Origin: an uncultured Planctomycetia bacterium | GTDB taxonomy: Bacteria > Omnitrophota > Gorgyraeia > 2-02-FULL-51-18 > JAGOUK01 | NCBI GenBank assembly: GCA_964430735.1 | Contig: CAYSFB010000005.1 | Span: 46,390-110,389 of the forward strand | Direction: 5' to 3' | Length of the DNA: 64,000 nucleotides | In this document: in pieces, positions 33,101 to 44,700 of the stretch | Numbering within the stretch: the first letter of the stretch is position 1 | How the letters are laid out: every line of letters starts with the position of its first letter | The notes under the pieces: generated by a model | The model's input: only the letters and a program-made list of their open reading frames with translations | Databases searched by the model: none | Told to the model about the DNA's origin: nothing | Position numbers and translations under genes: made by a program

Positions 33101-36100
33101 TCCTCGAAGGAGGATATGACTGGTTCCGCCAGGTCACGAAGAAGTTTCCGAACGTGTTCACGCTGTTTCTGGCGTCGTTTACACCGGAAGAATTGACCCT
33201 GCGGGCCTCGAATCAGCAGATCATCGAAAAAGTGTGGCAGGATCCGCTGCAGCGCGCCGTCGCCTTCAACCTGGTCAACATGATGCGCCGTAATCAAAAG
33301 ACAGAGATGATCGACCTTCGGCGCGAGGAGACTCTAAAAGAACTCAGTCAGGCCGTCTCGGGATGGGAAGGCCATCCCACCCGAGCGTCCGACCCCGCCG
33401 GCGCCATGCGTAAACTCGGCCGCAAGGTATATTCAGCCGAGGCGGTCGCCAAGAATCCGGATCTCGCCGAAACGGAAGCCACGCTTCGCGCCACGGCCGG
33501 CATCATCGAGAGCCCCGAGTTCATCGAGGCCGTGAACCGTCTCCTCGGCCCCGACTATCTCAACCACACCTTCCGCATCGATGAGTCGAACGCCCCTCTG
33601 GCCCGCTCACTCGCTTATTACTTCCATATGCGGCTGGCCGGGGCCGGGCGTTCGGACACTTCCGTCAGAATCGCCATCCCGTCGGCCGAGCGCGACAGAA
33701 CCGCCAATTATTCCAAGGACGAGGACATGTTCAACCGGATGATCGAAGGCGTCATTCAGACGCTCCTCATGCAGGAGTACGTCGAAGGCGATCGCGCCGG
33801 CCGCGGGACGATCGTTCACAACGCCTTCGTTTACGGTGACGGCGGCGAGGACCATATGAAACTCATCGAAGCCACCGAGAAGCGCCACGCGAACACCATC
33901 GCCGACCAATACTTCGGGTACCTGCTTTCCGCGATGAACGCGGCCAACGGCGCGCGTCTGGCACAGGTCGAGATGGTCGACGTGCTCGACGAAGCGGGTA
34001 GTTCCAAAGGAATGGTGCGCAGTCTCGACAAGGTGCGCGCGCAAGGGGACTGGCACGCGACCGTTTATGTCTTCGTGTTTGATCCGGCGACGGGCAAGGT
34101 TTATGTGCAAACCCGCTCCAAGGCGAAGGATCTGAACCCCGGCAAGGAGGACGCGTCCGCGTCCGGGCACGTCGAAGCGGGTGAGCGCGACCGCCGGACG
34201 GCCGCGCACCGTGTGGCGCTCAACGAACTGGGCGTTCATATCTCCATTGAGAATTTCATCGCCGTCGGCAAGGAATCCGGATACCCGGTCGTCGAAGACC
34301 GTCCGAACGGTCCGGCCCTGCGCCAGTACCGCACCGTTTATGTGGCCGTTTTGCCGGAAGGCGAACAGGTCAGTCCGAACGCGTTGGAAGTCGACAGTCT
34401 CAAGCAGTCCGACGTCATAGATCAGCTCCGTCTGGCGGATTCAGGTTCCGCGGAAATCAGCGAAGGCCTCCGGCAGATTTACAAACTCCGCCGCGTCCGC
34501 AGAGCGTTGGTCCGCGTGCAGAACCTCCTTGAAAAGATCCGTCTGCGCAACCAGGACCATGCTCTGTCGCGGCAGGATCTCCTCTTCGCGATCCGGAACC
34601 GCATTTCGACCCGTCCGATCAGGAACGTGGTGCTGGTGAGTCCCGAAGCCGTGCCCGTGGTCAAGACGGGCGGTCTGGGCGACGTGGTGGGTGAGTATGC
34701 CCAGTCGCTTTCGCGCCTGGGAATCGATGTCGCCGTGATCCTGCCCAAATACAACCGCGGACCCGTCACGGACGCCCTGGACACCGGGATGTCCTTCCAG
34801 TTACAGCTTATGGGCCGCACGGTCACGATCAAGATTCTGAAGAAAAAAATCGGGTCGGCCACCTACTATCTGCTCGAAGACACAGACACTTCCGAAAATT
34901 CGTTCCTGAACGAAATTTATCCGAAGGACACGGACGCGGACCACACCCGCTCCTTCGCGCAGTCCCGGATCGTCTCCGAGGGCTCATTGATCGCGATCAA
35001 AAAACTGGTCGAAGCGAAGATGATGGCCCGTCCGAACATCATCCACGGCCACGATTGGGAGACCGGCTGGATGCACGCGTACCTCCAAACGAAGTACGCG
35101 CAGGACCCGATCCTCGGCAGCGCGGTTCACGTCGGCACGGACCATAACCCGCGTCAACAGGGCCCCGATTTTCCTGCCAGGCTATATGCCGAACTCGAGA
35201 TTTATAACGCCAACGGCGAAATCGACTGGACGCACGTGTTCGGGATGCAGCGTCCCGGAAACACGAACGTGATCAACGCCAAGCGCGCCCAGCTGCTTCA
35301 CGCCGGCGCGGTCAACGTCGTCTCGGCCGGCAACCGCAGGGAAGTGCTCGCGGGAACGCAGGCCCACGGCAATCTGGACCTTTACGCGGCCAAAGGAAAC
35401 CTGTTCCGGGGTATCCCGAACGGCATTTCCGCGGACCGTTGGCCGGTGCTTTCGCCGGCCGTCAAGATCCAGGCGGAGGACCGGTTGTTGAGCGAGTTGA
35501 ATCTGGCCCCTCGCGGACCCGACACGGTGATCATCGGTTCAGTCTCCCGGATTGACGACCAGAAAAACACGCAGGCCGTCGTCCGCTCGATCCGCCGTAT
35601 TCTCGAAGAGACGGATGGCGACATCCGGTTCATCTTTGCAGGCGACGGACATCCCTCCAATCAGTACGCGCAGGAAGCCAAGGCGATGATGGCCCAGCTT
35701 CAAGCCGATTACCCGCGGCAGGTGCGGATTATTCACAAGGCGGACCACGACCTTCAGAACAGGATTTTTGACGGTCTTCAGATCTTCTTGTACCCGTCCA
35801 ACCCCGCGATCGGCGAGCCGTTCGGCACGAAGGCCGCCGTCGCTCTCAGCAAGGGCGTGCCCGCGGTGCTCACGCGCGTCGGCGGCCTCGCAGACATCGG
35901 CACCGAACTGAATCCCGTGAACGGAACGGGCAACACGGTGTTCCTCAAGTCGACTTCGCCGGTCGAAGTTGAAGTCGAACTGCACGACGGGATCTGGACG
36001 CTGATGAATCTTTATCGCAACGAGTCCGACCAGCTGACGTCGATCCTCGACAATGCCAGAAACGTCCAGGTGGATTGGGCCGACTCGACCCGGCAGTATC

Positions 36101-38484
36101 TCGGCCTGTATCAGGACGCGATGCGCACCCGGGCCAAGGCCCAGGCTGCTCGGTTGGCCGCGGAGCCGCTCTTGTCGGAGGGGCTGGTAATGGAGCGCAA
36201 CATGTCACGCCGCGAGATGCTGGACCGGATGGGCGCGCTGAACACGATCGAAGGGCAGGGGTTGTTCCAGCCGGAAGACATCGACCGGATCGGCGAAAAC
36301 GAGTTTATCGCGAGAGCGCTCAGGTTTTTGGATCCGGAGACCGCCAAACTTTTCCACCATGATTCGGAACTGCCCAACATCGATTCGATGACCAGCGTCG
36401 AGCTCAAGCATCTCCTCAAGAGCGTCGGCTTCGACGACGTCAAGGGAACCGACCGGTTCTTCATCATCTCGGGTCCGTCCGGCGTCGGCAAGGGAACCCT
36501 GATCCTGGACGCGATGATGAAACAGCACGGAGATATCTTCAACCGCGTAATTCTCTACAACACGCGCAACCGCCGGCCCGGCGAAGTGGACGGCCGCGAA
36601 TACCGGTTTGTGACGCCCGAAAAAATGACCGAACTTGAGAAGAGCCGCGGACTGATCGTGGTGAAGGAGCCCCTCGGCGGCGACATTCACGGTATCGACC
36701 CGGCGGATCTGGAAGCCAGTTTTTCGAGGTCCGGACTCTCGGTGATCGAAGTCGCGAACAACGCGGCTCAGGCGATCCGCGAGCGCTGGCCGGTGCGGTC
36801 CGTCTTCATCACCCCGCTTTCCGAAGAAGAAGTGCGCAACCAGATGCGGTCGTCACAACTCACCTACGAGGAAGTGATCAAGCAGGAAATCCGCAAACGG
36901 ATCGCGGCGCGCAACGCCAAGACGGGCGCGACGATCGGCGAAAAGCAGCTTGAGGCCCGGTTGGATTACGCGGTCGAGCAGATCCGCCGCAAGGACGAGT
37001 ACGACTTCACCGTCAACAACCCGTGGGAATCGGTGGACATCACCTTCGAGAAGATGATGCGCCTGATCTTTGGAACCGCGATTCAATCCGTGCTGAAAAA
37101 GCAGGACCCCGACGGTCCCTACAGCTCCAACGCGTTCCTTCAGGTCGACGCTTCCTCCGCCACGCGGAGTCAGACGAAACAGCTTCTGGAAGTTCTCGGA
37201 CAGTACTACACCATTCACGAAGGCCTTCGCACCGTCAATGCGAACGTGCTGATCTACCGGCTCAGAAACACACTGAACATGGTCGGCGCCATGAACCAGG
37301 CCCAGCGGATCGCCTATCTCAAGCGGCAGAACCGCAAAGAGGGGATCCTGAGTTTGGCCCGGCAGTGGCTTAACCTCAACATCAAGGGCGACCCCAACTA
37401 CGGCCAGGTCAAGAGCCTCGTCGAAGAAATCGAAAAGTCCCGCACCGCCGGCGCGAGATTGGCGGGTGCAAATGGATCCTCGCCCATCAGTCTCCCCCGT
37501 GTATTGACAGTGAACGTGCCTGAAGGTTTGTCAGACAACACGCTGGCCGGCATCCGTAGCGTATTTGAGAGGTCGCTGCTCATTCCCTATGAACGTATCC
37601 GCTTCGAGACCGGAGCTGCGGCGGAGTCATCTGGAGTAAACGGTAATTCTTCGAGCTCAGCCGTGATTCGGTTGAAACAGCCGTTCAAGGACGCGAACAC
37701 GTCGGCTTGGAAGTCTGCCGCGCTGGCGGAAGCGCAGGGCCTCAACGAAGTCCTCGCTGCCGAACTGGCCGATAATTACGCCGGCATGAGCGCTCAAGAA
37801 CTGGCTGACTCCGTGCTTGGCAACCTGGGCGATCTCGCCGAGTCGGATCTTCAGCTCGTCCGTCTGTGGCTTATCATGCAGGAAGCGGACCGCGCCGATG
37901 AAGTGACCCTCACCCCAGGCGCTCAGCAGATGGTCATGGGCGAGAAGCCGGGCCGGATTATTCTGACTCCCGAGACGATCCTTGCCCAAAATGAAGCGGC
38001 CCAGGCTCTCGAAAGCGCGCGTTTGGCCGCCGGACACTTCGGCAACGTCGAGGTGGTCATCTATAAGCCCGCAACCTTCTCCAGCGAAGATCAACGGAAT
38101 GAATTCGAGCGAAGAATCAAATCGATGCATGAGATTGCCGGACAAAGAATCACGGTCGAGGCCCTGAAGCCCGCCCCTCCCGCCTTATCAGCGGACCTCA
38201 TGCGCGGGTTGATCAGCATTCGCAACGAACGCGATCCCAGAAAGACGATCGTCGTGGATCCCGCAGCGGCCGGGCGCATGGAAGCGCTGATCAGCAATCT
38301 TGATGAAACCGGCGGCATGACGACCCCTGCTAAGGACGCCGGGTTTGTGCTCCACGCGGCCAGCAATGCGCTGCCTGGAGTCACGAAGTCCAACATTACG
38401 GTTTTTGACAAAACAATCGGCGCATTGAATGCAATTCTGACCCGGTTGGTGATGAGTCAGGAGACGACCGAGGTCGCTGCATAA
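7561..38484 (+). CDS. Giant (10,307 aa) signal-anchored multidomain protein. It carries a conserved N-terminal module plus glycan-metabolism enzyme domains (GT2-like, GT5-like, Nudix x2, guanylate-kinase-like x2, putative glycosidase, CBM- and YD-like regions).
   Basis: A single uninterrupted 30.9-kb frame. The N-terminus MTLQRPGFKLLVKIVASVTVVTFFFQDVVMA is a signal anchor. Recognisable enzyme motifs remain in frame throughout (sub-features follow). A purine-rich stretch precedes the ATG. Antisense frames contain only short ORFs. Confidence 0.85.
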   Translation: MTLQRPGFKLLVKIVASVTVVTFFFQDVVMATGGTPVWKTTPVALSAGERGAGKQVPEVSASLGVKRSEHLDGEADELIVNIQDAHSSIGAQKAASKIFAELVSQYDLDVIGVEGSSGAIDTSLVSAFPVKKVRESVAESLLLNTRIGGAEFFQMISQDDVELVGVEDPELYQSNIRVYQRLIADEPRIRKALSALKEILTALEQSIYSQELRDFRRQRLLHESGDLKFTEYWHFLKALVVRSGLLTSGRPNLEKLIRTAELEDEIDFKSATRQRDLLVKELKTKLSGDDLASLVKEAVRFKLGKITPGRFHASLVERARDAGVDPVAYKDFILYAEYAVLYESIDFLRVFEEIAELETRVEGSLLRKTDERRLASLGRTVDILAKLLEVKLTSSDEAFFLNNRAMFEPAALQAAVEELADERGIDASRIHWRLLASEIPAAEKFYRLAKERNDAMLTNLTKRMREKGKTVAALVTGGFHTEGLSRLMQERRVSHVVYMPKFDPKDGERPYITVITQKGSFIDAEVRAEAQLEAMAMVLASAVKGGLKFEDARRIWLDSFAAEQKVKGIQIPEWSDADLAKLVDGAPSAVEFTITFDKNGIPSATALKIAISDYKRRAALARLSSAEARQAETQKMLESLKESLAADDRASTNENAAAIVIRAKERFLVQMDLTRDAAVLERRWEAEWADAYMSALRKKGVLTADTLPVEEKSAFDAEVARAKDEIRSKLQIRVAEKHRLDGDRQLASASRGTAQSPEAATAAAGSFVARVDASRLAAGARLAVMERVGSAVKFLFPFQAGSAPADAVKPEPVKPAAVEPKILDSKPRRAPKQAPKQAPVKKKAAAEPELSGAELQRLAVYEARLVGKVPAQTLERLRSKPVLVRQILSLMDLKAGVNDARVAALRRNFKSQGFAKYTGPLTRSLTLRAPPAAEKPGLLTRITKSRWIRAAVFVIYMLMLPVTAGAQGYGSWNWSKAKPHGDFPSLSSLRGLGSFNNGGNTDIVVPNPGPESVRVMASQIDALENAAWRMSQETTRSAVQDAAFAGMQAEMDRSMVHTRVADLLFNSARFPIATFGYGDVVRLTTTDDNGVILKLRGRDPLAFKIAVLSRVGNKVTGRFVVTDPQDGRMLMAPDDIVIDLSDRVMKIESVGGKPVRNVYPNAPTPVINQMRALWEGLAPKVSELAGDAWSPAEKKALAGDPYRDIFAVNTVRDIIGVYEGLDRTIRSAVEKMDKVGIGGTGAGSDEFTAQFVQSVLENRMELAAATHLRLQADLARVQLRIRELEQIQKTSGLNPDQAAELEALKGPGYLTPEAGAAIRPFDDKSAPLVTLGSLTLQEKIAALSQINPVIGDYVDAGGTADRFAGVTDQARARIIASHPYFQTMRVLRDTDASGNDRYQLFTMGQKNLAALVKGMEGLLKQEANWLRSLNQIIAAKVIDPSTLEGQIRAASQDELIRLLQDKRTGPMAILLFSRMISRGDVPVAALEALAEKMQNSTDERWRLYFMFMGLSMLESVQESGSELTGSQKAMMEAAERMLTRAREQRSREEAKRSSEQQAAQSGSRERQPVFTPYGHRFANDPAREIVSALAQKPEAAKKIADAVWNVNLKEASQIALESFPEHPKLAEWIENLKGISGAGDEVFVENVFKSARYINGLFAPYMPGSITAEVLHMSKVRIVPTQAVAKYELPLGIGRSAHVAETRYQEGAAAPIPSSPFVAVLTGNEITGGVYAGDTNLDAANFLAHVIWNTAINPDPAARAAWEKAERGILYNADEEEAELQKKLLQRNFAGMSLEDVQDLVLATLNRRQEIFSIRSEIGMSYVDEATGLQDLTSLNLIGVVEGVTRDGRTVPTSDLAVVLAMRDLSDGKVGNLGDRRIRVYAGPDSYRIVPVNEQILVPLDLLAIPEGNMPAWTQEYEPLFGASPRELSRRTVATLAKTLYLDGQKTTEEAWRSTQANAIYAFEEGLKAGGAYDRVMRGKFGADIPQIPNRELYSASATMFLVHSAVAHIASSKPSPSDVYDAYYWQKVFSQQPDRPFTASPNQLNDLVRYLARVTQINLQKNNLDPGQDLRGMSPGVWALVLPELIDLPGIEAYGPSSGSKIYFDRSSGLAREVHAWKYQPGTGIRLIVPNRVWRALEPNPRELEWGQKTSERTSDQKESAQASEGGEKQQGGTGRSGASDQSSGTKQSTGQSESTEKSGQDDRLPVIWESTGNEAGNSTAGPDQAARTQARPALAGTYEPGTPLGDFVLTPSVAQALEVLEAVELHKLKDSPTGLNLPPDGKLTEEDEKRYRLIFSGTTPDAVVTAVQNGDLTLAHIEALAQALGLREGEDASRDPLRVGGSFTDVDVARMNAVARELRKAVAPLDAKHKVMDGRFTDFKQNLEKAARDRAEALAGTDEDLSAGFSDAADQIRFAAMDAKEKAGLDATTIQILQGNTSVETMAYQLTAQGWTYGLGIRFNPISNKWEPIAGAELRSADQLEGQDTGRRSDVYNLFAGNKIITLTGLRELYQADKIAQVNLDFINSMLPGWMDLGRQDFDGLSPDQIFFVIAEKFEVQHRVILTAPALEELARLVRERKNLEERVNTGGPINRGMVFSASAGDPYTFLMGEAERVRGKVREAGDALRRQYQMPFTAGSEESDRKHRQTQEAWTNPSPAEARLKELQAQNALYTGAYFAQVQDDATVFVRPADIKDTYANLEGSPASWTILLRQIVPAAALDPNAGKPWAPMYRELRVERDRFGVPTGRAAEIIREVPRTNPDQIDSFVKNIAVPSAEEIALQRQWADAAAKVALASFKRDRVTTPKYEPTPQTIDPAIWYFSNPNLRPHIQPASASDSQSVKQADADLALATEAYNAVSRSLGTFANRKSVAEVIGAQGVESWHASARRSREELESQIRAAEEPVQRPASATKRIPTDVAAKSVQTAVAKLKTSELNKAHDQAVAALEKYQKFVASMAVSDPRQGAYLLGEDVPGYWVLDNQSNIGEWMTEEQLKSRFPDSDPAHRQYRNQIEGRPSQTVIGGTTIMYFGNYRPPQDEVKLNHFVLADPITGEREAFYTRSQLAALADEDAAKPEAERAGWHDARKALDAGENAVLLPGNKLLVTLASKATLFTDAEGLPQLRIQPVDAGPLKVADQKMLTSISSMEYAHESSTAHLEELAGKLAAVYSTELSIGHPGSSVVIGGLKTEVREFGTFAGYVSTDYMSYIPIYLQTGPNLELIDVVGTVERVPGKRGEPKGSAQHFKIAGPLEPNYRFVTPNTAEATHFSITPVANQPISLQSLTDGLSIGRDVLNPIETARLRLAGLSHGPRTGAFVIQGVASVHNPGQQMETGTNGPNAVWQPPAAADAAGGQQAIFPGASYSYSIERMREHLIPFTTTAEQLEVNNRGRVDLFGGVYIASSGNYGAAPVGYSGHPAAERALNAKELHYRQLMQLAAQSRDADVSRHLRGFAYSPHVILPESVYGGIPSFVTVELGLHQIAEQMREWLSANGGLRSTHQEFVLSTPDVALQVIAQIRNRQGKAIPSAAKPAAQPSVQPAAKPGVKDQSYFKALEERAWGSLTIQQRDDLENYRLRNKIKAPFTAVSNWIRGFARDVRNNPTAMSWREDDGAVSPDESSAATGARLAATEATADQAAPEATQSSGVFGVPQWVVRRIADSYMRVWKQQQRYAQMLQDRSGETALREAWDRDALRGNAVDPLLRMALDQNDDPFEVRKPIRFFGVIVRTDKDGKTAYETLRAGDLARIEADAETGKFYIRKRQGKTWLNQGYGTVYFNDSARMLYDRIGFRKVTEADWNRFVSAGSFGAVASQQKTSTESDAAAPTAAAAGTSDQHKTLLEIDAETNARQLAAVKSFFRKAVQQVFGNRLLRAVLTTGLMGLGLIHLSSAFLQAAAPDRDKAVAAYTAESVKNPTKLTASHYTDPRYSHIAFNYDQMMIANTFLGSGYTAEGLQILDYYLPGFEGTAPRGAVRDYKGSKMLVNAVNVRTGREDLEWHITPGPNAFAVMSYLKSHNAALKAGDPVKAERYLKAAIQIAEGLMKMQAPDGGYRHGTANPKKTAAEPHSDVIAALQWLEKTLKSRPQDAAKKDLIARIHESVEGSADGAKPGAKRFFLKHLYDREKGIVYQGYEEGKGTNFDESLDTLSWFLMTPFGQSLPDADIKKITDTMLRKYVTKVRYNGQEILGGDFADSSSPVVIDRRDGKKPMISVEWTAGMIGALQVDAVRFKDSDPVLAAEYKAKALVLLDELGKTFSQYTDRQLDAVMGPYATAGNVLVAVDGPGWLTPRGNGSAIAISILNAMVGHNFFTGQLIEGFDGIPVTPDQMTAARAKLDELAAPRTEAAPGQAPVRAPAPAQPVQVQPAQAQPVQAPVKAPAPAQPAPAAGGRQEEIKLPRVQNAPGPNNERAEYYDLDQPIELQANDQIIIEYTSHTPGRQVGLQLVPSKARADAHKDVIIYDITPNNDPLIFTAPGRVRLERLAFQYGDLPFGLKKNEMPKNRPDGENRPNGSDINVTRVRILRAPQAAQPAAVPQPAAAPQGPAAQIDMNKLNAAATPAEAAETVFQRETDHRDVMVEPDRSGVGIPASVNWPTAGAVRSLAFFGGDEVYEADEAATKKWIAENPGKPIDQMPRLNVPSPSDSGTWLMTTDRRGRFLSIDVLQGNQIEKSFTGNVQVWVPKVPGEKPATGNGVWMPIQQYIQFDAIGGVINRINSDTWVRFDLLNLAEYRDGEADPVGHSTYAVDPGSHGFMLGDLGYEIGSGSDFFKKNVKALVKYTVHRGTVRDYADPGRDSSRLYAIEHFVAKKNGSGGILHDAKGQPQFHRFVEFRDSRGFVRYTVYGGILTNFIYNNDNQLMLTRKFAVQPELFSNPVNNEVLNPDDAQQVPVTDYIGQSFYTGQTRPLTDVEERLGRRILEGRQRLLDPRQKGDFARIRTELDALTAAKEKIDALLSDVHARDSAALARMAAASDDESISVAPIQTLKNGTQEIADRRRAAAEQVFALVRGFDGFGDLDVSTVLLDQRESLVVTESVEFIRGSEGEYAQGFNRDGSEKQIRKGDAAYEEFVRLLDWQRQLSAELHRAGLKSEDSMGEGDKIGGYRALIGRSKNAGAIDAQTEQRLLGLLEKIDRAIVFGSGLLTHGELKFRGDAGLDYATAVLMSRDHTLRILDDQIAKQSAELAALPPGGVQAKQAAADLAALKRKRDDLDRITPDLAFITLYDRSSNMSDPAGLNREHLRSQSKYGVPTPPIAYDAKGRLGFAGGLALDPWQIVAASADALLHEVTTVESHNPSGEQLLRVRKLQYANGTYQAETLFGDTRDYAEGRLMQIEIPGLLKVVILRDAQGRELGQFAFGLNRERSEELSRIAGYPVRIYDVPTAYGAAKPGAWGLSDNYSLNSTVLRDDQDRPVIADRERMIPASVYLHEDGTPYTADEMALVRNQSLLAQTTRPADDRKTQFGALQDQLGKAMRTHSVERHDDFGVLAEQRIGNSILIRVLFDRQGIEYGRIELARDTNGEFTVPLSIGRVAGYLPDGQAIIEKFSFGWVAVERNGITERLLQALQNGPDGKAVYIDPKGMTDTQLHDLVQKVRTLKTVEVMRHGLLMSQTAADTRVIVDRDAAGFEVGRHTLGENPAQPGVFNVPVGDGMLRGVNLLKGAEDLNHIFARYEKVFDVARREYFFLNGRVLVETGDGTQFAFISPTDGEGRPLRLDLLATYGILAYEGGNGELVRVESIPGVDASGAPVALKASDIKRVPAKDVQQGYDGEGRILYKIVRNTFTEILYDAEHREIGRKAYSWDAVNRKFHRDIAGNPIVLSEGQVVGVSDDGNLITAIQRYLYLYDKATGKWKPKTRVVDGQDIHQTISYEEQYKSNGNLHNQTLGNMRMEVIYRDGGEIGRRSYLINPETGAIIRLHGEGDVTGYVRYQADGMETPEYHVKVAQKVYLYDESGAMVTTDGLPAAADRSNVDRLDVLEAYNEVGWIRSQLMDEKLTRVNFDPVTGLEISRARLKKWQSSDLDYTMPVSYGELFDYTDEGNALLRMRLAHYTRDADGKSVPLTTDGAAVFTPDLSNAQTVVQTAQENPLGYVFLQSNREITASYIPGNDPRAFGFSVPQSASSIYAPNGFETYSLSLAYDQAAGKSYLYSIARDPKYQIQRYTEKRDKYGRFQVKQLGKRAYTYRQDTPEPWLDLVDTSTDGYGNNWMHTYTFDGPLVMETIVDAGTNITIYKVTKNIVTGDVVRQAETVLAPYLDKQRKPVVADIRTTERSYYQGSLIVSKDVITSLDGKSITRTLRLAPDGTPDFRPETVPAQVPYADRKYSQYDSKDADGREWISGFDIHSPLGVPQWEDKADKRYVSHPGRGVISLVNEGVRTYHIKAGTRGEPKDKKVHGWAKLRIDLGIPHGIALPDEFIPNKYDGLDVSNYQYFRFWIKGVTGTEKYHVQFNDVNSQNTREQLDWAPADQSWGNGGWREVRIPVSMIGQNGVDVKRLSNLFFSFGADVGNPVGGTLQISAMEFVAFDDQGDPAKVLPLSQVIGSMETGGDTKFSKYKGPKFATKFGNADFFSHETFASPNMTVDVQSVFVVDTRAEKPGSGEWGPTCGITDYVGVTPEGQSVIRTWQLWPGTTWVEIQSVIGLPTARIYPSGFIEDNMIDSWSERVYMDHRGNSIVSVIEQGGMDRKGRKLATGDVRFVYQSVNNKAGDQVWRRDIVFGEDYFNHNDTNDQIRWEKKPDPDDNRLRRDRIYAYDEDGYETGTQPFMPDYWTKNSDPFAPERIDAPEPWSTIQESMTRDVTFDHKFPLTIAKTATPDSTMKPQEFTQGNFNNRGTPNLISGIRESWEYSLLLWSLIAAAGLTAVRRIKKLLEPRKDGYLPDAPIQPAAPAQPAQQQQPPTTAPDANSGSTAGARLATAADVSQLFAEVGAQSDAELEARLLRYSQQLEARVQYQGINPAQLPIEGPEDPKGLYIYLPRPNDFGFAKISFSGYVYKAVLTKEILHEISSDPILGFIVEEVVFPALRAGKSAAQIRELVQAYKKVWFSLIDEGYRQHKKEGVSRALGKAFMFEDMSDLHRDGRILGMRPNFMRSSVYRNYLAPDRIAATAAALTYNSSTDPANVQKAAKTFRQKLTNTLLDFLDNNRVNLQLSLAHPVRSIKKVALVVTNTLFSILAPGRTSVKGLTFWSAVTASWAVWNAWFLSVVWSNGVLPYWDFAVHGNPRALVALAVTVATNSLFVILSYYTFTYFGQAAVAWLTGKATGNTKIQADTQIRPLMTLTGAVLGAGVGWAAAAFMGLALPLIPAVVVGGLIGTYLFSDRSLKGVGSMLRDGARGGSTSLVGVNLQAQLTQEYRDLVTDLRQSSQISPAEEAQIQLQPGQTIDALDAKNIGSVQDEVARIRLRNWANAYLRRTAGLMNDVNDPQEIRSRWVRFVTKASDPYYYYYKTDPTDPKGKLTLASKKHDNGHTIITFLVQNHRTQWNNLADDLQSRGLINAAMADGMKRIQKGQSLDTIFGANPSAALEAEIERFANSRLQTVWWTIQGVLNLRRAYEEKLREVHGNTMPAADLQREVDHYFRFVVMINDTEAGFAKKRPDALQAYRDAGAVLFFKPGPSLCDRGVGSYKAILINAVRHLTAGYDLGFFVDADTEIRMEDARKLIHAGSAFDKNPRLGIVQYRTYIFNALYSLTTRMVRWPIGTFWGPVLRVRNQIGSPSFHGHNADLRTDYIYDMEGAAPDDVSEDFLVAMSFEQQETRGSWIQRIIRRLFGFKTAEIDRRAVESGYDDSIHIGEGQETDAQAYLGTTTRKWSSGTAAGSMSKTLKRLITSWRVPIAVKIDFMFNIGFYTILNRMAPYASILYATELFGFGIDSFSLLPKTLLLVTYLFSNAINTSTLLVYIEMAGGKVAGTLKFIRDFPSIMGLWVPGVTSQGKSAELGKGEKSEYTTSAKGVGLTYENIWNVYLRASRGMKVGWIILVASLAPVLPFVSSPYSDTTTYIAAMLVVLFGWMNLTHPLLYRVDPLRMEGRSGITRLVVGIWHAAKLLVFATIAPPVGLTISVAHRVANLLFLSRQWDAVEATLIVKGEKDQPPTFRDKMEASVEKIFGARLASEERVDLLDENGNPTGVTKLRSKIRPTELTRTINVFLFRKNPDGTVQVLMQIRSGKKKTFPSRRDTAAAGMAAAGESPLWTASRELAEEVGVQVDPKDLVRIGPENGYRIQETSIGVFPSEPSRKRHKGKLLTNQFRSVFVALLPPGQEVKLQDSEVAGSEWSDLDTELNAVQTNPEAYASMQFELVYPEVAKQLRAAKKLLEQAPADVSYSDVIDRWVRAGVGVATADAELLTTDALVAYLESGQLTPEMIRAISIDQKAELLRRIDLSQYDLQEKMVILSGAPGSGKDLARHAFGKQGRYVDLVAQLLLYHSREPRAGEINGIKYHFGQFNVGENTNRLVVLKNDGRILTAYINKQLQGVALERFVEQVVLRSDVAADQLLETDAVVRQDTINGMKVTVVNRSISGLAEAFKGSKFTFLEGGYDWFRQVTKKFPNVFTLFLASFTPEELTLRASNQQIIEKVWQDPLQRAVAFNLVNMMRRNQKTEMIDLRREETLKELSQAVSGWEGHPTRASDPAGAMRKLGRKVYSAEAVAKNPDLAETEATLRATAGIIESPEFIEAVNRLLGPDYLNHTFRIDESNAPLARSLAYYFHMRLAGAGRSDTSVRIAIPSAERDRTANYSKDEDMFNRMIEGVIQTLLMQEYVEGDRAGRGTIVHNAFVYGDGGEDHMKLIEATEKRHANTIADQYFGYLLSAMNAANGARLAQVEMVDVLDEAGSSKGMVRSLDKVRAQGDWHATVYVFVFDPATGKVYVQTRSKAKDLNPGKEDASASGHVEAGERDRRTAAHRVALNELGVHISIENFIAVGKESGYPVVEDRPNGPALRQYRTVYVAVLPEGEQVSPNALEVDSLKQSDVIDQLRLADSGSAEISEGLRQIYKLRRVRRALVRVQNLLEKIRLRNQDHALSRQDLLFAIRNRISTRPIRNVVLVSPEAVPVVKTGGLGDVVGEYAQSLSRLGIDVAVILPKYNRGPVTDALDTGMSFQLQLMGRTVTIKILKKKIGSATYYLLEDTDTSENSFLNEIYPKDTDADHTRSFAQSRIVSEGSLIAIKKLVEAKMMARPNIIHGHDWETGWMHAYLQTKYAQDPILGSAVHVGTDHNPRQQGPDFPARLYAELEIYNANGEIDWTHVFGMQRPGNTNVINAKRAQLLHAGAVNVVSAGNRREVLAGTQAHGNLDLYAAKGNLFRGIPNGISADRWPVLSPAVKIQAEDRLLSELNLAPRGPDTVIIGSVSRIDDQKNTQAVVRSIRRILEETDGDIRFIFAGDGHPSNQYAQEAKAMMAQLQADYPRQVRIIHKADHDLQNRIFDGLQIFLYPSNPAIGEPFGTKAAVALSKGVPAVLTRVGGLADIGTELNPVNGTGNTVFLKSTSPVEVEVELHDGIWTLMNLYRNESDQLTSILDNARNVQVDWADSTRQYLGLYQDAMRTRAKAQAARLAAEPLLSEGLVMERNMSRREMLDRMGALNTIEGQGLFQPEDIDRIGENEFIARALRFLDPETAKLFHHDSELPNIDSMTSVELKHLLKSVGFDDVKGTDRFFIISGPSGVGKGTLILDAMMKQHGDIFNRVILYNTRNRRPGEVDGREYRFVTPEKMTELEKSRGLIVVKEPLGGDIHGIDPADLEASFSRSGLSVIEVANNAAQAIRERWPVRSVFITPLSEEEVRNQMRSSQLTYEEVIKQEIRKRIAARNAKTGATIGEKQLEARLDYAVEQIRRKDEYDFTVNNPWESVDITFEKMMRLIFGTAIQSVLKKQDPDGPYSSNAFLQVDASSATRSQTKQLLEVLGQYYTIHEGLRTVNANVLIYRLRNTLNMVGAMNQAQRIAYLKRQNRKEGILSLARQWLNLNIKGDPNYGQVKSLVEEIEKSRTAGARLAGANGSSPISLPRVLTVNVPEGLSDNTLAGIRSVFERSLLIPYERIRFETGAAAESSGVNGNSSSSAVIRLKQPFKDANTSAWKSAALAEAQGLNEVLAAELADNYAGMSAQELADSVLGNLGDLAESDLQLVRLWLIMQEADRADEVTLTPGAQQMVMGEKPGRIILTPETILAQNEAAQALESARLAAGHFGNVEVVIYKPATFSSEDQRNEFERRIKSMHEIAGQRITVEALKPAPPALSADLMRGLISIRNERDPRKTIVVDPAAAGRMEALISNLDETGGMTTPAKDAGFVLHAASNALPGVTKSNITVFDKTIGALNAILTRLVMSQETTEVAA
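10390..10470 (+). other. Internal signal-peptide-like hydrophobic segment about 950 aa into the protein.
   Basis: KSRWIRAAVFVIYMLMLPVTAGAQG has a basic n-region, a hydrophobic core and an AxA-like site. Confidence 0.35.
19160..19250 (+). other. Internal signal-peptide-like or TM segment preceding the putative glycosidase domain.
   Basis: NRLLRAVLTTGLMGLGLIHLSSAFLQAAAPD. It is preceded by NARQLAA, which resembles the recurring GARLA motif. Confidence 0.3.
19300..20420 (+). other. Possible (alpha/alpha)6-barrel, six-hairpin glycosidase-like domain.
   Basis: The region from FNYDQMMIANTFLGSGYTAEGLQILDYY through EWTAGMIGALQVDAV has aromatic/Gly/Asp-rich helical-hairpin character typical of GH8/GH15/GH94-type folds. 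No catalytic motif was securely identified. Confidence 0.25.
20580..20710 (+). repeat. Low-complexity Pro/Ala/Gln-rich linker built from a short degenerate tandem repeat.
   Basis: APGQAPVRAPAPAQPVQVQPAQAQPVQAPVKAPAPAQPAPAAGG, with the nucleotide unit gctccggctcc..cc repeated. Similar linkers occur at about 21115-21190, 28160-28250 and 9975-10105. Confidence 0.5.
24800..26300 (+). other. Degenerate YD-repeat (Rhs-like beta-hairpin repeat) region.
   Basis: Recurrent Y-D-x-x-G and G-x-x-x-R-Y spacing: ILYDAEHREIGRKAY, YLYDKATGKW, VYLYDESGAMVTT, YTFDGPLVMET, YTEKRDKYGRF. Confidence 0.3.
26690..27110 (+). other. Beta-sandwich carbohydrate-binding-module-like region.
   Basis: WAKLRIDLGIPHGIALPDEFIPNKYDGLDVSNYQYFRFWIKGVTGTEKYHVQFNDVNSQ...WREVRIPVSMIG...TLQISAMEFV. 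The aromatic-rich pattern and the phrase 'YQYFRFWIKG' are typical of CBM/discoidin-like sandwiches. Confidence 0.3.
29000..29480 (+). other. Transmembrane helix bundle (about 5-6 TM helices), N-terminal flank of the GT2-like domain.
   Basis: Consecutive hydrophobic segments: LVVTNTLFSILAP, LTFWSAVTASWAVWNAWFLSVVW, ALVALAVTVATNSLFVILSYYTFTYF, LMTLTGAVLGAGVGWAAAAFMGLALPLIPAVVVGGLIGTYLF. Confidence 0.55.
30230..30850 (+). other. GT2-family (processive synthase-like) glycosyltransferase catalytic domain.
   Basis: FRFVVMINDTEAG is a degenerate nucleotide-binding motif. LGFFVDADTEI is a DxD box. SEDFLVAMSFEQQETRGSWIQR is ED plus a Q..R..W-like box, comparable to the TED / QxxRW of cellulose and hyaluronan synthases. 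The domain is flanked on both sides by TM bundles. Confidence 0.45.
31010..31735 (+). other. Second transmembrane bundle (about 6-7 TM helices), C-terminal flank of the GT2-like domain.
   Basis: IDFMFNIGFYTILNRMAPYASILYATELFGFGI, LLLVTYLFSNAINTSTLLVYIEMAG, VGWIILVASLAPVLPFV, YIAAMLVVLFGWMNL, LVVGIWHAAKLLVFATIAPPVGLTISV. Confidence 0.55.
31900..32330 (+). other. Nudix hydrolase domain (copy 1).
   Basis: Nudix box GESPLWTASRELAEEVGVQV (G-x5-E-x7-RE-x2-EE-x-G) at about 32065-32125. It is preceded by FGARLASEERVDLLDENGNPTG. Confidence 0.55.
32670..33300 (+). other. Guanylate-kinase-like P-loop domain (copy A).
   Basis: MVILSGAPGSGKDL is a Walker A box. YHSREPRAGEINGIKYHF matches the guanylate kinase TTR-P-R-x-GE-x-DG-x-Y-H-F box. 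Confidence 0.45.
34030..34440 (+). other. Nudix-like domain (copy 2, variant box).
   Basis: GHVEAGERDRRTAAHRVALNELGV. It is preceded by NGARLAQVEMVDVLDEAGSSKG, which parallels the pre-Nudix segment of copy 1 and indicates an internal duplication. Confidence 0.4.
34600..36110 (+). other. GT5-family glycogen/starch-synthase-like glycosyltransferase domain.
   Basis: VVLVSPEAVPVVKTGGLGDVVGE is the K-T-G-G-L-G-D-V signature. Also present are IIHGHDWETGW (HxHDW), GIPNGISADRWPV, VSRIDDQKN and the C-terminal YPSNPAIGEPFGTKAAVALSKGVPAVLTRVGGLADI (E-P-x-G ... T-G-G-L-x-D). Confidence 0.7.
36440..37080 (+). other. Guanylate-kinase-like domain (copy B).
   Basis: FFIISGPSGVGKGTL and NTRNRRPGEVDGREYRFVTPEKM closely match the GMP kinase G-P-S-G-x-G-K-[GS]-T and T-T-R-x-x-R-x-G-E-x-D-G-x-x-Y-x-F-V boxes. 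Confidence 0.6.
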
Positions 38485-38494
38485 AGATCAACTT

Positions 38495-38586: not shown

Positions 38587-38605
38587 TTTTGCAGAAAGTT
38601 AGTAA

Positions 38606-38618: not shown

Positions 38619-38661
38619 TTCTAAGAACCTTGAATGCTCGGCTGTTGTCGGGCAGGCTTTG

Positions 38662-38690
38662 TTTGTAGTTTAACGACCCGTACATATAAG
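38662..38690 (+). promoter_or_regulatory. Candidate sigma70-like promoter (-35 TTTGTA, 17-nt spacer, -10 TATAAG) for the 2.8k-aa gene. The SD AGGAG at 38703-38707 lies 11 nt before the ATG.
   Basis: The hexamers and spacing were read directly from the AT-rich 234-nt intergenic gap. Confidence 0.3.
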
Positions 38691-38718
38691 TAATGAATAA
38701 GCAGGAGACTAATTCGCA

Positions 38719-41700
38719 ATGAACCGGAAGCTGAAGTGGATGGCATTGATGGTCGCGGTTGCCTTTATGGGCCAGGAGCTGGCTGTGGCTGCTCCGGTTC
38801 TGGCACCTTCCATGCCGGTCGCTGCTTCCAAGCCGGAGGTGGGTTTTGTTCTGCCGGAGTCGGTCGCGCTGATCGACGACGGATTCAAGGCGCCTGCGGC
38901 GGATGCGAAGACAATCTTTCTTATTCAAGACGCACACACCAATGAATCCGGTCAGATGAACGAGGCCAAGGCCCTCGCCGAGATCCTCCCATCAGAGAAT
39001 ATCAGGCACGTATTTACCGAAGGCGCCGACAACGACGCGTCCCTTTCGTTCCTCAAAGAATTTTTCCCCAAAGACGTGCTTCGGAAGACCTCGATCTCCT
39101 TTGTCCGCAAGGGGATCATGAAGGGCAGCGAATTCGCCAGCGTGAACGGGGATCATGAGTTCGCCCTGATCGGCGTCGAAGACGAAGAGCTCTACGATCA
39201 GGCGCTCGAGTCATTCGTCGATATTCTTAAACGCCGGGATAAAGCCGTGCAGTATCTCGACCGCGTCGGGCGCGCCGCTTCCACGCTCAAGGAATCGATT
39301 TACAGCGAGGAACTCAAGGCTCTGGATGCTCAGGAATCGGCGTACCGCGCCGGTGAATTGCCGCTCACGGATTATTTTGCTGCGCTGCATGCCCAAGCCA
39401 GGAAGACCGGCGTGTATCTTCCGCAGTATCCGCACCTTTCATTCTTGAACGAACTCAAAAAATCCGAGTCCAAGGTCGACTTCAATCAGGTTTCCAAAGA
39501 GCAGGAAGCGGCGCTGAAGTCGCTTCCCGAAGAAGACCAAAAAACGCTAGCCGCCGCTTCCAAAGAAAAGCATTCGCCCTTCCGTATGGGCGGCGGTGAA
39601 AAATCCACCGAGAAGGCCTTCTACGCGCTTCTCGAAGAAAAGCTGGCCGGCCGGTCCGCCGCATACCCGGCCCTGTCCCGATATTTCGGCTACCTCAAAC
39701 AAACCAAAAAACTCGACGCTCAATCCATCCTCAACGAACTCAAGGCTTTTGAGATGGACGTCTTCGGCCGCCTTGCCGTCACTCAGGACGAACAATTCCT
39801 GGTGGTGCTGTCGAAGAACCTCGTCTCGCTCGAGAATCTGCTCGAGATCAAGCTTTCTCCCGAAGAATTCAGCGCGTTCCGCCGCGATTCCGCCGTGTTC
39901 GACATCAAGGTGATCGGTGGATTTTTCAACAAAAAGATCATGGGCCTCGGCAAACATCACGACCAAGCTGTCCTGCTCGAAAAAGATTATGACGAAGCGG
40001 TGAAGACCGCCTCCGAGTTTTATGAGCTGACCTATCGGCGCGATGAGGCGTTCGTCCGGAACATGCTCACCCGCATGGATGCCGACCAGGCCGCCAAAGC
40101 CGTTCTCGTCACCGGCGGTTACCACACTCCGAGCCTGAAGCGCATGCTGAAGGATAAAGGCATTTCCTACGTTTCGATTATGCCGCAGATTCTGCACGAG
40201 ACCGACATGGCCCGTTACCAGAAGATCGTGACGAGCCAGTTGTTCGACGCCCAAAAAGAGACGCGTCTGGCCCAAGCGCGCTCCAAGGCCAACGCTTTTA
40301 TGCCCAAGGATCTTCGCAGCCGCGGCGTGGCTGATTTCATCACTGTTGCCGCCTCCAACCTCCCGAAGGACCAGCAGGAATCCGTCGTCACCGAAGCTCT
40401 CGCGGCCGCTCGACTGGCTGTGAGCAGTCCGGATCCGCTTCAGGGGACTTTGATGCGCATCGAACAGGGGATGCTGTCCAGTTCGTTCGGAGATGCCGCG
40501 CTCAATTTAAGAGCCAAAGACCGCGCGGGGCTGCGTGGAGTCTGGGATTTGCGTTGGCGCCGCCCTTATTCGAGCGTGGGAGCGGAACAGCATTTGAGTC
40601 AGCATCTTTTTCCGTCAATTCTGCGCGAGGCCGCTATGCCGCGTTTGACCACTCCGAAGACCGATGCGGAAGCCGACGATGAAAGGATCAAGTCCCTTGT
40701 CGCGCAGGCAAAGGCAGGGGATTCAAAGGCTTTGGATGATTTGTACCTGCTCCTCTATCCTTCGATCAAAAAAGCAATCGATATCAAGATTCAGGAAAGG
40801 ACCAGAGACGGAAAATTCTCATGGCTAAAAAACGAGCGGGGCGACATTTTGTCCATCGTTTATCTTCAAACATTGCCCGACGTCGTGCGGGCATTCAATC
40901 CGGCCACCCTCCGCAATTCTGGTCGTGGCGCGGAAAACTTCAAGCGCTATCTGATCCGATCGGTTTACAATCTGATCGTCAAGCTGGTAATACAGCGTCG
41001 AAACGTTTTTTTGAATGCGAATTTTGACGAACATCCGAGCCCGATTGCGGCTCCTCCGGCGATTCTGGAAGAGCTTGAACAAGCGTCTTTAGAAACCCGC
41101 GTTGTCAGTGATCTGGTCGACGACATTTTGCAGAGCGCAAACAGCGAACAGGCAAAAGAGGAGCTGATGGGGGTGCTGTCCGGAATTTTAAATTACGGTG
41201 ACAACGATTCTGTGATCTCTCACGAAACCGGCATCGCAGAGCCCAGAGTCGCCTTGATCAGACAGGAGATCGTCAGCCAGTATTCTGAATTTAATTTTAA
41301 AGCGAAAGGCAATATCCGGTGGCGGGTGTGTCTGGTGAATATTTATGATTTTCTTGCGATCAGAAAGATTTTAAAAAATAGTGACCCGCGGAAAATAAAA
41401 AATATCCTGTCCAAAAATCCCGCCCGGGCAGACATCGTTTATCGGGCATTGAGACTTCGGTACGGCGCTGACGGCACTCCCAAACGCCTTGAAGAAATAG
41501 TCAAGGAGACCCATGCCTCAAACGCGAGCGTTGTCTGGAGCCGCATCCAGGCGGGCGTCGCGGCGATCAAAGCCAATGATCCGGTGTTTTCCGGCGTGTA
41601 CTCTGACTTCGAATCTTCGGCAGAAAACGGTCCTTCGGCCGCCCGTTTGGCGGATATGAGCATAAGTGGAGAAGGTTGGTCCGAATTCGGTCACCTTGCC

Positions 41701-44700
41701 AAAGAAAGCAACCCGCAACCCGCAACTCCTGTCCAATATTCACCCGAAACTGGTCCCGTGATCGAAGGTGCCGTCGTCGGAAAAACCGCGTCCGAAGAAG
41801 GCGCCATTGCGCCCCAGGTGGCTCTGCCCAATCAAACCAATGCCGCGCGGTTGGCCACAAACATCAACCGCAGACAGTTTTTAATCGACGCGACCAAAGC
41901 GGCGGCAACCACCGTCGTGGCATCCCAGATCCTGCGGACGACTCCAGTTCAGGCAGAGGAGCCGAGCGAACTAGTACCCGGAAGCACGCTCAATCTCTTT
42001 GACGAATACGGGACCAAGGCCGGTGAGACGTGGGCGAGCAAGTTCGCCTTCACCGGCGGAGCGCTGGACGCATCGCAGACTCTGAAGTTCGTCGTTACGC
42101 CTGAAGACAGCCTCGAAGGATTCATGATCCGACTGACCAAACAGAAAGACGACGAGGATCCCTGGATCCTCACGTTCAAAAAAGTGAACGGGAAGTGGGG
42201 CGTGAGCACCAGCCCCAAACTCTCGGCGCCCAAGGCTGCCGAGCAGTTTGCCGACAAGGTCGCGGTTGATGCCGACGGAAACATTGTCGTCACGGTTCCG
42301 GTTGCGCTGATTCCCGCATCCGCCCGCTCGCCCAAAGAAATCCACATTCACGCCGGCAAGGTCATCAGCACCGGTCCCCAGGGCCGCGGCATTCAGATCA
42401 ACCTGAATAAGACCAACGGTCCCAATCTTCAATCTGCAGCGGTAGAAATATCCGAAAAATCCGGCGCCCGGCTCGCGACGCTCAAGGAGCTCGAAGCGCG
42501 TCCTTTGGACAAGTGGAATGCCGTGAATTTGACCGATTTTGTTCTAAGCGCCGCTTCCGTGAAGCGGGTTCAGGAAGGTGCCGATCTCAGCCGATACGAA
42601 ATCCGAGGCGCAGGCCGTACGTTGTCGGCGGAAGTCATGAACCGGTATCAGTCCGGGACCGTGTTTCAAATCGCCGTTTCCTGGCAGGATGACGCATCGA
42701 CGTCCAAAACTTTGTATGCGAACCCTTCGGATAATTACTCGCTGGACAGCCTCGCGGAGATTCTGATGGGCCGCGTCGAGGCCGAGCAGACCGCCCCGAA
42801 GTCGGCGGAGCAGACGACCCGAGCGATGCGGCTGGACGAACTCGATTCTGAACAGCTCGCGGATATTCTCAGGGAACTCGTTCGTACGGACAAGCTTGCC
42901 GAGTATCCCGTGCAGTCCAAATTCCTGCTCTATTCCGCGGCGCCTGGCACCGGCAAAGGAGCTCTCTGGGAGACCGCGTTTGATCCGGACAAGGGCGGAA
43001 GCTTCAGCGATATCACCGAAAAGGTCGTGTTGTTCCACACCCGGAAGATGCGTGCAGGAGAAGTTGACGGCGTGCATTACCATTTCCGCACCGTCGATCA
43101 GCTGCGCGACCTTGAGCAAAGAGGACTGATTCTCACGACGCTCATCAACGGACAGGTGCAGGGCCTTGCCATCAAGAGCTTTGAAGACGTTCGTCAGGAC
43201 GGAACTCCGGCTCAAGTACGCGGACTCGAAGGCATCTTCAGCGGCGACAAGCTGGCTATCCTTGAAGGCGGCATGGGCTGGTTCGACTTTTTGCGCAGCC
43301 GCCCTGAATACAACGGCGTTCCCGCATTCTTTTTAACACCGCTTCCGGAAAACGTGATTCAAATTCGCGAGAAAAATCTCCAGGTTATCAAACGCACATT
43401 CCCCACGGACCGGGAGCAGGCGCTCGCGCTCGAAATCATGATGCGTCTCTTCAGCCGGGACGGCGAATCAGACCTTTCGAATCCCGCCTACGTCGGTCAG
43501 CTGAACCGGATCAAGGAAGGGGTGACGCAGATCATCAAGGGCGGAGACTATGACGAAAGGTTCGAAAACATATTCGGATTTTCTGACGAAGATAAGGATA
43601 AGAATCTGAAGTCTTTGGTGGAACGGTTTTCGCGCGCCTACTTTTTGCGGGTCTTGAACGAAATACAGAATGATCCGCGCGGAGCCGCTGACGTCGAGGC
43701 TGCAATGGCGAGTGTGCTTGGATCCCGGTTGGCAACCGGTCCAAAGGGGCCGAGCTGGATCCGTCAGTATGCGCCGCATGTCGCGGACAGCCAAATCGTC
43801 GAAGTCACGATGGAGATGGCGTTGAGCGAGCCCATCATGAGCGCGCTTGAGACGCGCCTGCGCCAATCGGGTCTTGAGGAGGAAGCGATCGAGCATGAGC
43901 TGCGCAAGGCCGCCATGTCCACGTCCGTCGGAGGTATCGGTCCGCTGCTGGGTGAACGCGTGCCGGAACTTTCGAACCTCGGAGCAAATGTAACGGCAGT
44001 TTCGCTTCTTTATAATCAGGTCTGGGTTCAGAAACGCCGGCCCGACGGAACACTTTCGTCCGAAAAGGAGCAGGTTCATCCGGAACTTCGTAACGTCATG
44101 GAACCCGCCGGCGAAGTGACGATCGAGATGTACGACGGCACCAAAATCAGCGCGCGTGTGCTCAAGGCCCCCCGCGGAGCCTACCAGCAGGCCGACGTCT
44201 ACTTTATTGACGTGCCGTTCCTCGCTGACACGATCTGGGCGCGTTCGAATGTCGTTTATCCTGGGGCCAAAGACGTCAGCCGCGCGAATGCCGAGCTGGC
44301 GCGCTTCAATCAGAGCTGGATCCTGGGCCGCGGTACGCTCGCTCTCATGAAAATCCTGAAACGCCGTCCGGATCTCGTGATCATGAGCGAGGCGTCCTCG
44401 ATGTTCGCGCATCACCGTGTTTTTAGAGACAGCCATAGCGACGATCCGTTTTTTGACAACACCCGCTATGTTTTTAACGATCACACGCCGCTGGATTATG
44501 CGCATCCCAAATGGAGTTCCCAGGTGCTCCGGCTCCTGCGCGTCGACGAGCGTTTTTGGGGCGAGAATCTCCCGGTGTGGGACGCGGACGGCCGCGTGGA
44601 CGCGACGGCGCTCATGATCAACGCCTCGGACATCGTGTATGGCGTGGCCAAGAAGCACGCGGAGGTGATGCGCGGAATGGTCGGGTTGAGACGTTTGGCC

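Follow-up and report, generated by a model that had tools for sequence, protein, structure and literature searches.

A sigma-factor-like module set between short junction motifs in a polyprotein-like giant protein of the Omnitrophota

How does a segment that reads like a sigma-70-family factor come to lie inside a giant protein that begins with a possible export or anchor signal? The question is raised by a 64,000-nucleotide stretch of DNA from an uncultured Planctomycetia bacterium that GTDB places in the Omnitrophota (assembly GCA_964430735.1, contig CAYSFB010000005.1, positions 46,390 to 110,389; hereafter the window, whose own numbering is used throughout). A preliminary description, made from the letters alone, had pointed there to region-2-like residues (AKAGDSKALDDLY...FKRYLIRSVYNLIVKLVIQRR, ~40675–41004) and region-4-like residues (RALRLRYGADGTPKRLEEIVKETHASNASVVWSRIQAGVAAIK, ~41425–41574) in a signal-anchored giant protein, and both stretches are indeed present in the frame of one open reading frame (ORF), which opens with a signal-like hydrophobic helix (MNRKLKWMALMVAVAFMGQELAVAAP). 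This frame, ORF E (38719–47136, + strand, 2805 amino acids (aa)), is unbroken, and the flagged segment is its first cargo module (aa 568–973), exactly flanked by two copies of a short junction motif. The best reading of these sequences, to which we give a probability of about 0.55, is that ORF E encodes a polyprotein-like giant protein of the Omnitrophota that would be cut at these motifs and whose first cargo would be a fast-evolving module of sigma descent. That the segment is a discrete cargo module, and not an internal domain, explains how a sigma-like piece can appear ‘inside’ a giant protein.

ORFs D, E and F stand in tandem, and all three belong to a large family of Omnitrophota giant proteins with the look of polyproteins. 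The matches between the N-terminal domain (N-domain) of ORF E and those of ORFs D and F have E-values of 1e-112 to 1e-194, and a search with the whole of ORF E gathered 113 relatives, mostly labeled Omnitrophota, of 1.6–4.9 thousand amino acids (kaa). The relatives share only the N-terminal ~510 aa (the N-domain is present in 111 of 114), apart from four that also share the C-terminal module. Each member begins with a hydrophobic helix and the conserved ~510-aa domain, and continues with a variable string of protein-sized cargo modules. In Pfam, the variable middle modules match enzymes (hexokinase, PFK, aldolase, PEPCK, PGM, GDH and adenylate kinase) as well as regulators (CsrA, receiver domains, helix-turn-helix proteins and, in P0062 and P0105, Sigma70_r4); transcription-factor-type modules belong to the cargo. 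The closest relatives lack the flagged module. In species-representative genomes, the head-domain motif IQDAHTNxSGQ was found at 104 loci, several per genome, and nearly all of these loci lie in metagenome-assembled genomes (MAGs) of Omnitrophota or in MAGs labeled ‘uncultured Planctomycetia’. The C-terminal module of ORF E, which has no Pfam match, is its sole cargo module kept in several relatives.

Conserved short motifs stand at the module boundaries of these proteins. In the lineage of ORF E the junction motif is [GA][AS]R[LM][AST] (‘GARLA’; logo [AS]-G-A-R-[LM]-[AST]), which spans 5–6 residues between unconserved flanks and occurs 240 times in the 114-protein set against 1.5 copies expected, where permuted controls occur 0–3 times and GARLA is the top 5-mer. 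ORF E carries it at aa 563, 974, 1042, 1249, 1668 and 2431, and it is also found in ORFs D and F. The codons at the motif vary freely, which places selection on the peptide; a conserved nucleotide element behind the motif was rejected on the same ground, and internal translation starts at the motif were rejected because methionine is not enriched after it. Relatives without GARLA in other lineages use R[AS]E[VML]R (RAEVR-type, class B: P0105 with 16 copies, P0102, P0103 and P0110) or [GA]ASLG (GASLG-type, class C: P0097, P0098 and P0113), with no overlap between the classes; in 26 relatives none of the three motifs is present.

The motifs frame units of the size of ordinary proteins. The first site always follows the N-domain, at aa 500–620 in the family, and the median module between motifs is 289 aa. 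In P0031, a class-I aldolase (Pfam 1633–1984) lies between sites 1625 and 1983, such that its start is at most 5 residues from one motif and its end overlaps the next by two, while PEPCK and PFK each occupy one inter-motif interval. When the site lists of five proteins were tallied against Pfam coordinates, 0 of 43 motif sites fell inside a Pfam domain, where ~7 were expected. Furthermore, twin-arginine (Tat)-like signals immediately follow a motif in ORF E, P0025 and P0044 (0.27 expected), and such a start right after a motif is sensible only if the motif becomes a terminus. The Tat-like stretch named in the preliminary description (NINRRQFLIDATKAAATTVVASQIL...VQA) was found where expected, starting at nt 41857, ~450 nt past an AT-rich patch in the flagged module; its elements are NRRQFLI, then TKAAATTVVASQIL, then VQA. 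Since Tat signals require a free N-terminus, this one would be functional in ORF E only after a cut at motif 3. The GARLA motifs may mark the cutting points of the giant proteins. Two further observations concern motif placement. In P0062, a GFO/IDH/MocA oxidoreductase domain shares a single interval (aa 729–1842) with an inositol-monophosphatase domain, so the motif does not stand at every enzyme boundary, and ORF D has motif-free stretches of up to 3275 aa, which reflect either other junction signals or some very large modules.

We then asked how sigma-like the first cargo module is. Pfam scans gave no match to Sigma70_r2 (PF04542), Sigma70_r4 or Sigma70_r4_2 even at E ≤ 10, and this part of the earlier claim of a sigma resemblance did not stand. 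The best curated matches were NCBIfam ShbA (E = 0.029), TIGR02999 (E = 0.093) and PF07638 Sigma70_ECF (E = 0.16, 12.3 bits vs a cut-off of 21.1), none significant and all on the same ~40 residues around AKAGDSKALDDLY; the region-4-like part had zero matches in the Pfam and NCBIfam scans. What did hold up is a weak resemblance in the right order and by a modest margin over chance, seen with our own profiles. One is a hidden Markov model (HMM) of 13 diverse annotated extracytoplasmic function (ECF) sigmas from plasmids plus RpoE, and the other a region-4 profile from E. coli RpoD, RpoS, RpoH and FliA and two sigma modules from relatives. A profile seeded with RpoE was dropped, as it returned only orthologues of at least 86% identity and gave an HMM too narrow for a positive control. 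Against 3000 shuffles the module ranks 7th with the ECF HMM (5.2 bits) and 7th with the region-4 profile (5.6 bits), and hhalign gave P = 0.0021 for region 2 against the 13-member ECF profile, with sub-regions 2.1, 2.2 and 2.3/2.4 aligned in line with the preliminary description, and P = 0.043 for region 4. In a ranking of 1374 real modules of the family, it comes 6th for region 2, 11th for region 4 and 7th for the two combined, directly behind modules with clear or likely sigma region 4, and thus in the top 0.5–0.8% for both regions. A pairwise comparison with the region 4 of P0105 gave z = 3.6.

Sigma modules are found elsewhere in the family, and those of P0105, P0062 and P0059 are clearer than the flagged one. 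P0105 and P0062 carry bona fide Sigma70_r4 modules, and by our own profiles region-4-like modules are seen in P0059 (aa 1965–2532), P0049 (aa 1355–1967) and P0097 (aa 2613–3024); sigma-type cargo may therefore recur in 4–6 of the 114 proteins. Within the flagged module, a whole-module hhalign comparison weakly preferred, as the equivalent of ECF region 4, a second helix-turn-helix-like stretch (ISHETGIAEPRVALIRQEI) upstream of the AT-rich patch; there may thus be three sigma-like parts in the module, an arrangement like that of group 3 sigmas.

Several results pull the other way and have to be weighed. A word-indexed search of 5.8 billion proteins found no relative of the module, an exhaustive phmmer search of 1.84 billion representative proteins matched it only to itself, and a search among 117 other collected giant proteins found no relative either. 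The single-sequence AlphaFold model of the module is all-helical with a predicted local distance difference test (pLDDT) score of 39, too poor to use. A search of the PDB with the module gave nothing relevant and no sigma match at E ≤ 10. An unrelated helical domain of the same family, an N-domain member, reaches E = 0.008 on a sigma model by chance, and the flagged module was not recovered when the family was scanned blind with a threshold of E < 1.

These results leave room for a chance resemblance, in which the module would have no sigma ancestry and be a novel domain or a helical spacer confined to its lineage. Alpha-helical sequence rich in leucine, arginine and alanine often mimics sigma regions, and the hhalign probabilities are only 1–13%; together with the lack of significant curated or PDB matches, the chance score of the N-domain member and the miss in the blind scan, these points give mimicry an appreciable probability, though one below even. 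What speaks against it is that two largely independent profiles, for region 2 and for region 4, both place the module in the top 0.5–0.8% of the 1374, in the correct order and directly behind modules with a likely true sigma region 4, that the alignments fall on canonical sub-regions, and that clear sigma modules exist in relatives. On these grounds the module is probably a fast-evolving, degenerate, lineage-specific descendant of the sigma-70 family, compositionally foreign to the rest of the gene. It would consist of a sigma-2-like part, a long linker encoded by AT-rich DNA and a sigma-4-like helix-turn-helix.

If the giant protein is cut, which part of it could do the cutting? The sole domain common to nearly all members is the N-domain, and a known endopeptidase offers a comparison. 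The TIKI-family endopeptidase RRSP has a 2His/2Glu signature with an arginine, formed by E3900, H3902, E3930, R4001 and H4030 (PMC6254334). In an alignment of 28 N-domains, H73, Q79, E101, E154, R441 and H469 are invariant and D71 is near-invariant, so that a TIKI-type set of 2His/2Glu plus a basic residue is found in order, with Asp replacing Glu two positions before the first His. The spacings are also alike: D71-x-H73 is followed after 28 residues by E101 and R441 after 28 by H469, where the RRSP spacings are 28 and 29. The AlphaFold model of the N-domain (pLDDT 87) shows an alpha/beta core that is interrupted by ~300 aa of helical insert, and the TIKI-like residues follow predicted beta-strands of that core. 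Sub-threshold Pfam matches to the ChaN/Tiki family, DUF5694 or DUF5682 were obtained for 12 of the 28 members (PF04187 in 6, best E = 0.001; DUF5694 in 3; DUF5682 in 3, including ORF E at 0.0076), all under the curated cut-offs. We take DUF5694 and DUF5682 to belong to the same clan as the ChaN/Tiki family.

Other searches with the N-domain do not bear out this kinship and count against it. Foldseek against the PDB, in which the helical insert dominated, returned no TIKI-family structure; profile searches of the PDB with the full N-domain and with the core only gave spurious matches only; and hhalign against the E. coli TraB-family protein YbaP was not significant. An NCBIfam search was uninformative, and eight divergent N-domains scanned singly had no Tiki match. 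The TIKI-type signature makes the N-terminal domain a candidate protease of the giant protein, an assignment that we hold tentatively and at slightly less than even odds. One column of the head domain, S77 of ORF E (38947–38949), lies four residues after the catalytic-like H73 and is the sole one that splits GARLA-type from RAEVR-type proteins, with Ser in 94% of class A (GARLA-type) and Glu in 78% of class B, a comparison confounded by phylogeny. This column may set specificity.

The giant protein might also stay whole: the GARLA motifs would then serve for docking or as flexible linkers between domains, and the sigma-like part would work while tethered in a membrane-anchored multi-enzyme scaffold. 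Cleavage is inferred here, the link of the N-domain to the TIKI family is sub-threshold, and a 2026 preprint describes multi-enzyme metabolic clusters without invoking cleavage (10.64898/2026.06.07.730766). A further point that does not sit easily with the polyprotein-like reading is the Sec-like signal at the N-terminus, which is at odds with both the cytoplasm-type cargo and the internal Tat signal. As for self-processing, the use of one motif by ORF D, with its divergent head domain, and by ORFs E and F could be explained equally well by a protease that they share and that acts in trans. We nonetheless consider an uncut chain unlikely. Linkers are not normally an exact five-residue motif with an invariant arginine over hundreds of junctions, nor are they exchanged for another exact motif by lineage; a Tat signal needs a free N-terminus; and full-length enzymes are framed within 2–5 residues.

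In the polyprotein-like reading, the giant protein would be cut at the junction motifs, probably after Leu or Met, and each module would end up as a protein of its own. For the sigma-like module this would mean a free protein of ~45 kDa; the next module but one would acquire a proper Tat signal at its N-terminus. The N-terminal domain is the candidate for the cutting, and since ORF D has a divergent head domain and the same motif as ORFs E and F, the cutter may act in trans. Possible roles of the released sigma-like protein are binding to RNA polymerase and regulation through DNA binding. A much wider proposal is that much of the enzyme and regulator repertoire of the Omnitrophota is made as true polyproteins, each headed by its own TIKI-type endopeptidase that cuts a lineage-specific five-residue motif (GARLA in this lineage, RAEVR or GASLG in others), and that the sigma-like module is released to redirect the RNA polymerase of the cell or of the prey or host to which these ultra-small bacteria attach. 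We think this unlikely as a whole; if true, it would be a cellular counterpart of viral polyproteins and of MARTX effector delivery.

The AT-rich patch within the module is real and extreme. At 41269–41418 it has the lowest GC (0.35) and third-codon-position GC (GC3, 0.44) of the 683 windows of 150 nt in the giant ORFs D, E and F (GC mean 0.596, sd 0.048), so the preliminary description was right about a local anomaly, though it had put the GC of the gene at ~64% where ORF E overall has 57.2%. The deviation is not confined to the patch: 7 of the 12 lowest-GC windows sit within 40669–41493, which is mostly GC-poor at every codon position. The K/I/N/F-rich linker encoded by the patch joins the two sigma-like parts. 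Together, the patch and the low GC of the whole module suggest recent acquisition or relaxed constraint. The earlier proposal of a captured or once-separate gene came close to the mark, in that the segment is a discrete module between junction motifs, absent from the closest relatives and compositionally deviant. On its other suggestion, that the module may be an anti-sigma-style decoy, the results bear neither way.

The same description had proposed that the patch acts as an internal promoter, and a promoter or regulatory element could in principle serve the separate expression of downstream modules, given that no other 150 nt in the 51 kb of giant ORFs are as rich in AT and that GC3 is lowered too. 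This is very improbable: 0 sigma-70-type promoter-like sites were found in 38400–43000 against 1.7 expected by chance (the promoters of the Omnitrophota are themselves unknown), the frame is unbroken, the patch lies in the module interior, 220 nt 5′ of the next junction motif and off any module boundary, and Rfam and repeat searches of the patch gave no match and nothing notable, respectively. A weak terminator-like hairpin with a T-run lies at the patch edge (41419–41432, − strand), downstream of an antisense 97-aa ORF (41567–41860); the number of terminator-like sites in the patch region is at chance level. An assembly or annotation artefact that fused separate genes, one of them a sigma factor, would suit modules that resemble free-standing proteins, yet it is highly improbable, as there are zero stop codons over 8.4 kb, the identical protein is recorded on three contigs from two sources (Logan SRR14271373 and an NCBI assembly), the architecture is repeated in >100 relatives and at 104 genome loci, and start codons are not enriched after the motifs.

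The features of the three giant ORFs are collected in Table 1. Two details of the N-terminal helix of ORF E add to the entries there: a pattern conserved in the family, F..(5)..A-x-A-A-P in the alignment consensus, and an AlphaFold helix at residues 3–24.

Table 1. Positions in the window of the giant ORFs and of the motifs, modules and other elements of ORF E
Feature	Position	Strand	Remarks
Giant ORF D (paralogue)	7561..38484	+	10307 aa; same N-domain; 9–10 GARLA-type motifs
Giant ORF E	38719..47136	+	2805 aa; conserved N-terminal domain, then six modules set apart by GARLA-type motifs
N-terminal hydrophobic helix, MNRKLKWMALMVAVAFMGQELAVAAP	38719..38799	+	signal peptide or membrane anchor; alignment consensus, predicted model
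Conserved N-domain, ~510 aa	38719..40263	+	candidate TIKI/TraB/ChaN-like hydrolase
Junction motif 1, AARLA	40405..40419	+	aa 563–567; closes N-domain segment
Flagged module	40420..41637	+	aa 568–973; all-helical, sequence orphan, low GC; probably degenerate sigma-70-family derivative
Sigma region-2-like stretch	40675..41004	+	aa 653–762; AKAGDSKALDDLY (2.1), GDILSIVYL (2.2), FKRYLIRSVYNLIVKLVIQRR (2.3/2.4)
Second helix-turn-helix-like stretch, ISHETGIAEPRVALIRQEI	41146..41307	+	aa 810–863; weak; hhalign placement of ECF region 4
AT-rich patch	41269..41418	+	encodes K/I/N/F-rich linker (FNFKAKGNIRW...ILKNSDPRKIKNILSKN)
Sigma region-4-like stretch, LRLRYGADGTPKRLEEIVKETHASNASVVWSRIQAGVAAIK	41425..41574	+	aa 903–952; own region-4 profile, hhalign
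Junction motif 2, AARLA	41638..41652	+	aa 974–978
Spacer module	41653..41841	+	63 aa; low-complexity
Junction motif 3, AARLA	41842..41856	+	aa 1042–1046
Tat signal-like start of next module	41857..41958	+	immediately 3′ of motif 3
Junction motif 4, GARLA	42463..42477	+	aa 1249–1253
Module with guanylate-kinase-like P-loop	42478..43719	+	TIGR03263 E=7e-7, PF00625 E=0.0018, aa 1402–1495
Junction motif 5, GSRLA	43720..43734	+	aa 1668–1672
Alpha-glucan phosphorylase-like module	43735..46008	+	TIGR02094 E=6e-29, PF00343 E=3.5e-12, aa 1733–2190
Junction motif 6, GSRLA	46009..46023	+	aa 2431–2435
C-terminal module	46024..47133	+	~370 aa; common to relatives P0002, P0003, P0012 and P0028
Giant ORF F (paralogue)	47149..59361	+	4070 aa; same N-domain; 7 GARLA-type motifs; GHMP-kinase and glutamate-dehydrogenase modules

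Other genes lie beside the three giants. An ORF of 1488 aa at 27–4493 (+) has two GARLA-type motifs but no head domain and no Pfam match; it may be one more gene with cargo only, or may belong to another giant gene. It is followed, upstream of ORF D, by a TPR-repeat protein (4548–5360, +) and a 644-aa membrane protein (5357–7291, +) with a Dpy19-like (glycosyltransferase-type) match. Right after ORF F comes an ordinary sugar-type ABC transporter operon with a solute-binding protein and two permeases (59426–62515, +).

Whether the giant genes of the Omnitrophota yield one chain or are cut is a current puzzle in the literature, on which the junction motif bears. It provides a concrete rule for splitting giant proteins into units for structure prediction and annotation, as well as exact peptides to seek in metaproteomes, and its pairing with a head domain that bears an endopeptidase-type signature suggests a candidate processing enzyme. 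Literature searches that paired Omnitrophota with polyprotein or with sigma factor brought up no relevant work. The closest known system is that of the ‘multi-enzyme metabolic cluster’ giants, which come from the same phylum and are likewise very long ORFs tiled with unrelated cytoplasm-type domains (10.64898/2026.06.07.730766; 10.1101/2023.11.21.568195). They have phosphorylase, kinases, dehydrogenases, response regulators and HEAT repeats in common with the present family, as well as N-terminal signal or transmembrane segments, whereas the present members, at 1.6–10 kaa, are shorter than the giants of at least 30 kaa on which the two preprints focus. Neither Nielsen & Lui 2026 nor West-Roberts et al. 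2023 names a junction motif or a common N-terminal domain (10.64898/2026.06.07.730766; 10.1101/2023.11.21.568195). The latter states that the cleavage points are unknown, a gap that blocks analysis, and suggests that C39 or S8 peptidase domains do the cutting (10.1101/2023.11.21.568195).

Outside the phylum, MARTX toxins resemble the present family in being one giant polypeptide with shuffled, unrelated effector modules, which a MARTX protease releases by inter-domain cuts after Leu and before a small residue. The MARTX hallmarks, a cysteine protease domain and RTX repeats, were not seen in Pfam scans of ORFs E and F, so that the likeness is one of analogy only; moreover, the present cargo has the look of regulators and housekeeping enzymes and not of toxins, and the candidate protease is N-terminal. 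One MARTX effector, RRSP, is itself a sequence-specific endopeptidase of the TIKI family (PMC6254334). As for the wider TIKI/TraB/ChaN/erythromycin-esterase superfamily, the N-domain has D-x-H, E, R and H residues that match its catalytic set both in order and in spacing, but the N-domain core is split by the helical insert, its profile matches are sub-threshold and no structural match was obtained. With viral polyproteins, such as those of picornaviruses and the coronavirus replicase, the family has in common short, conserved, lineage-specific motifs between protein-sized modules, while cleavage and a protease on the same chain are proposals in the present case; unlike them, it is encoded in a cellular genome with many paralogues, and its protease would belong to a different family. 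The flagged module, finally, resembles ECF and group 3 sigma factors in having a region 2.1–2.4-like stretch, then a region 4 helix-turn-helix-like stretch, in an all-helical module. It differs from them in the ~190 residues between these two parts, where ECF sigmas have ~30, in its 85-residue N-terminal extension, in its lack of a significant profile match and in being embedded in an ORF of 2805 aa.

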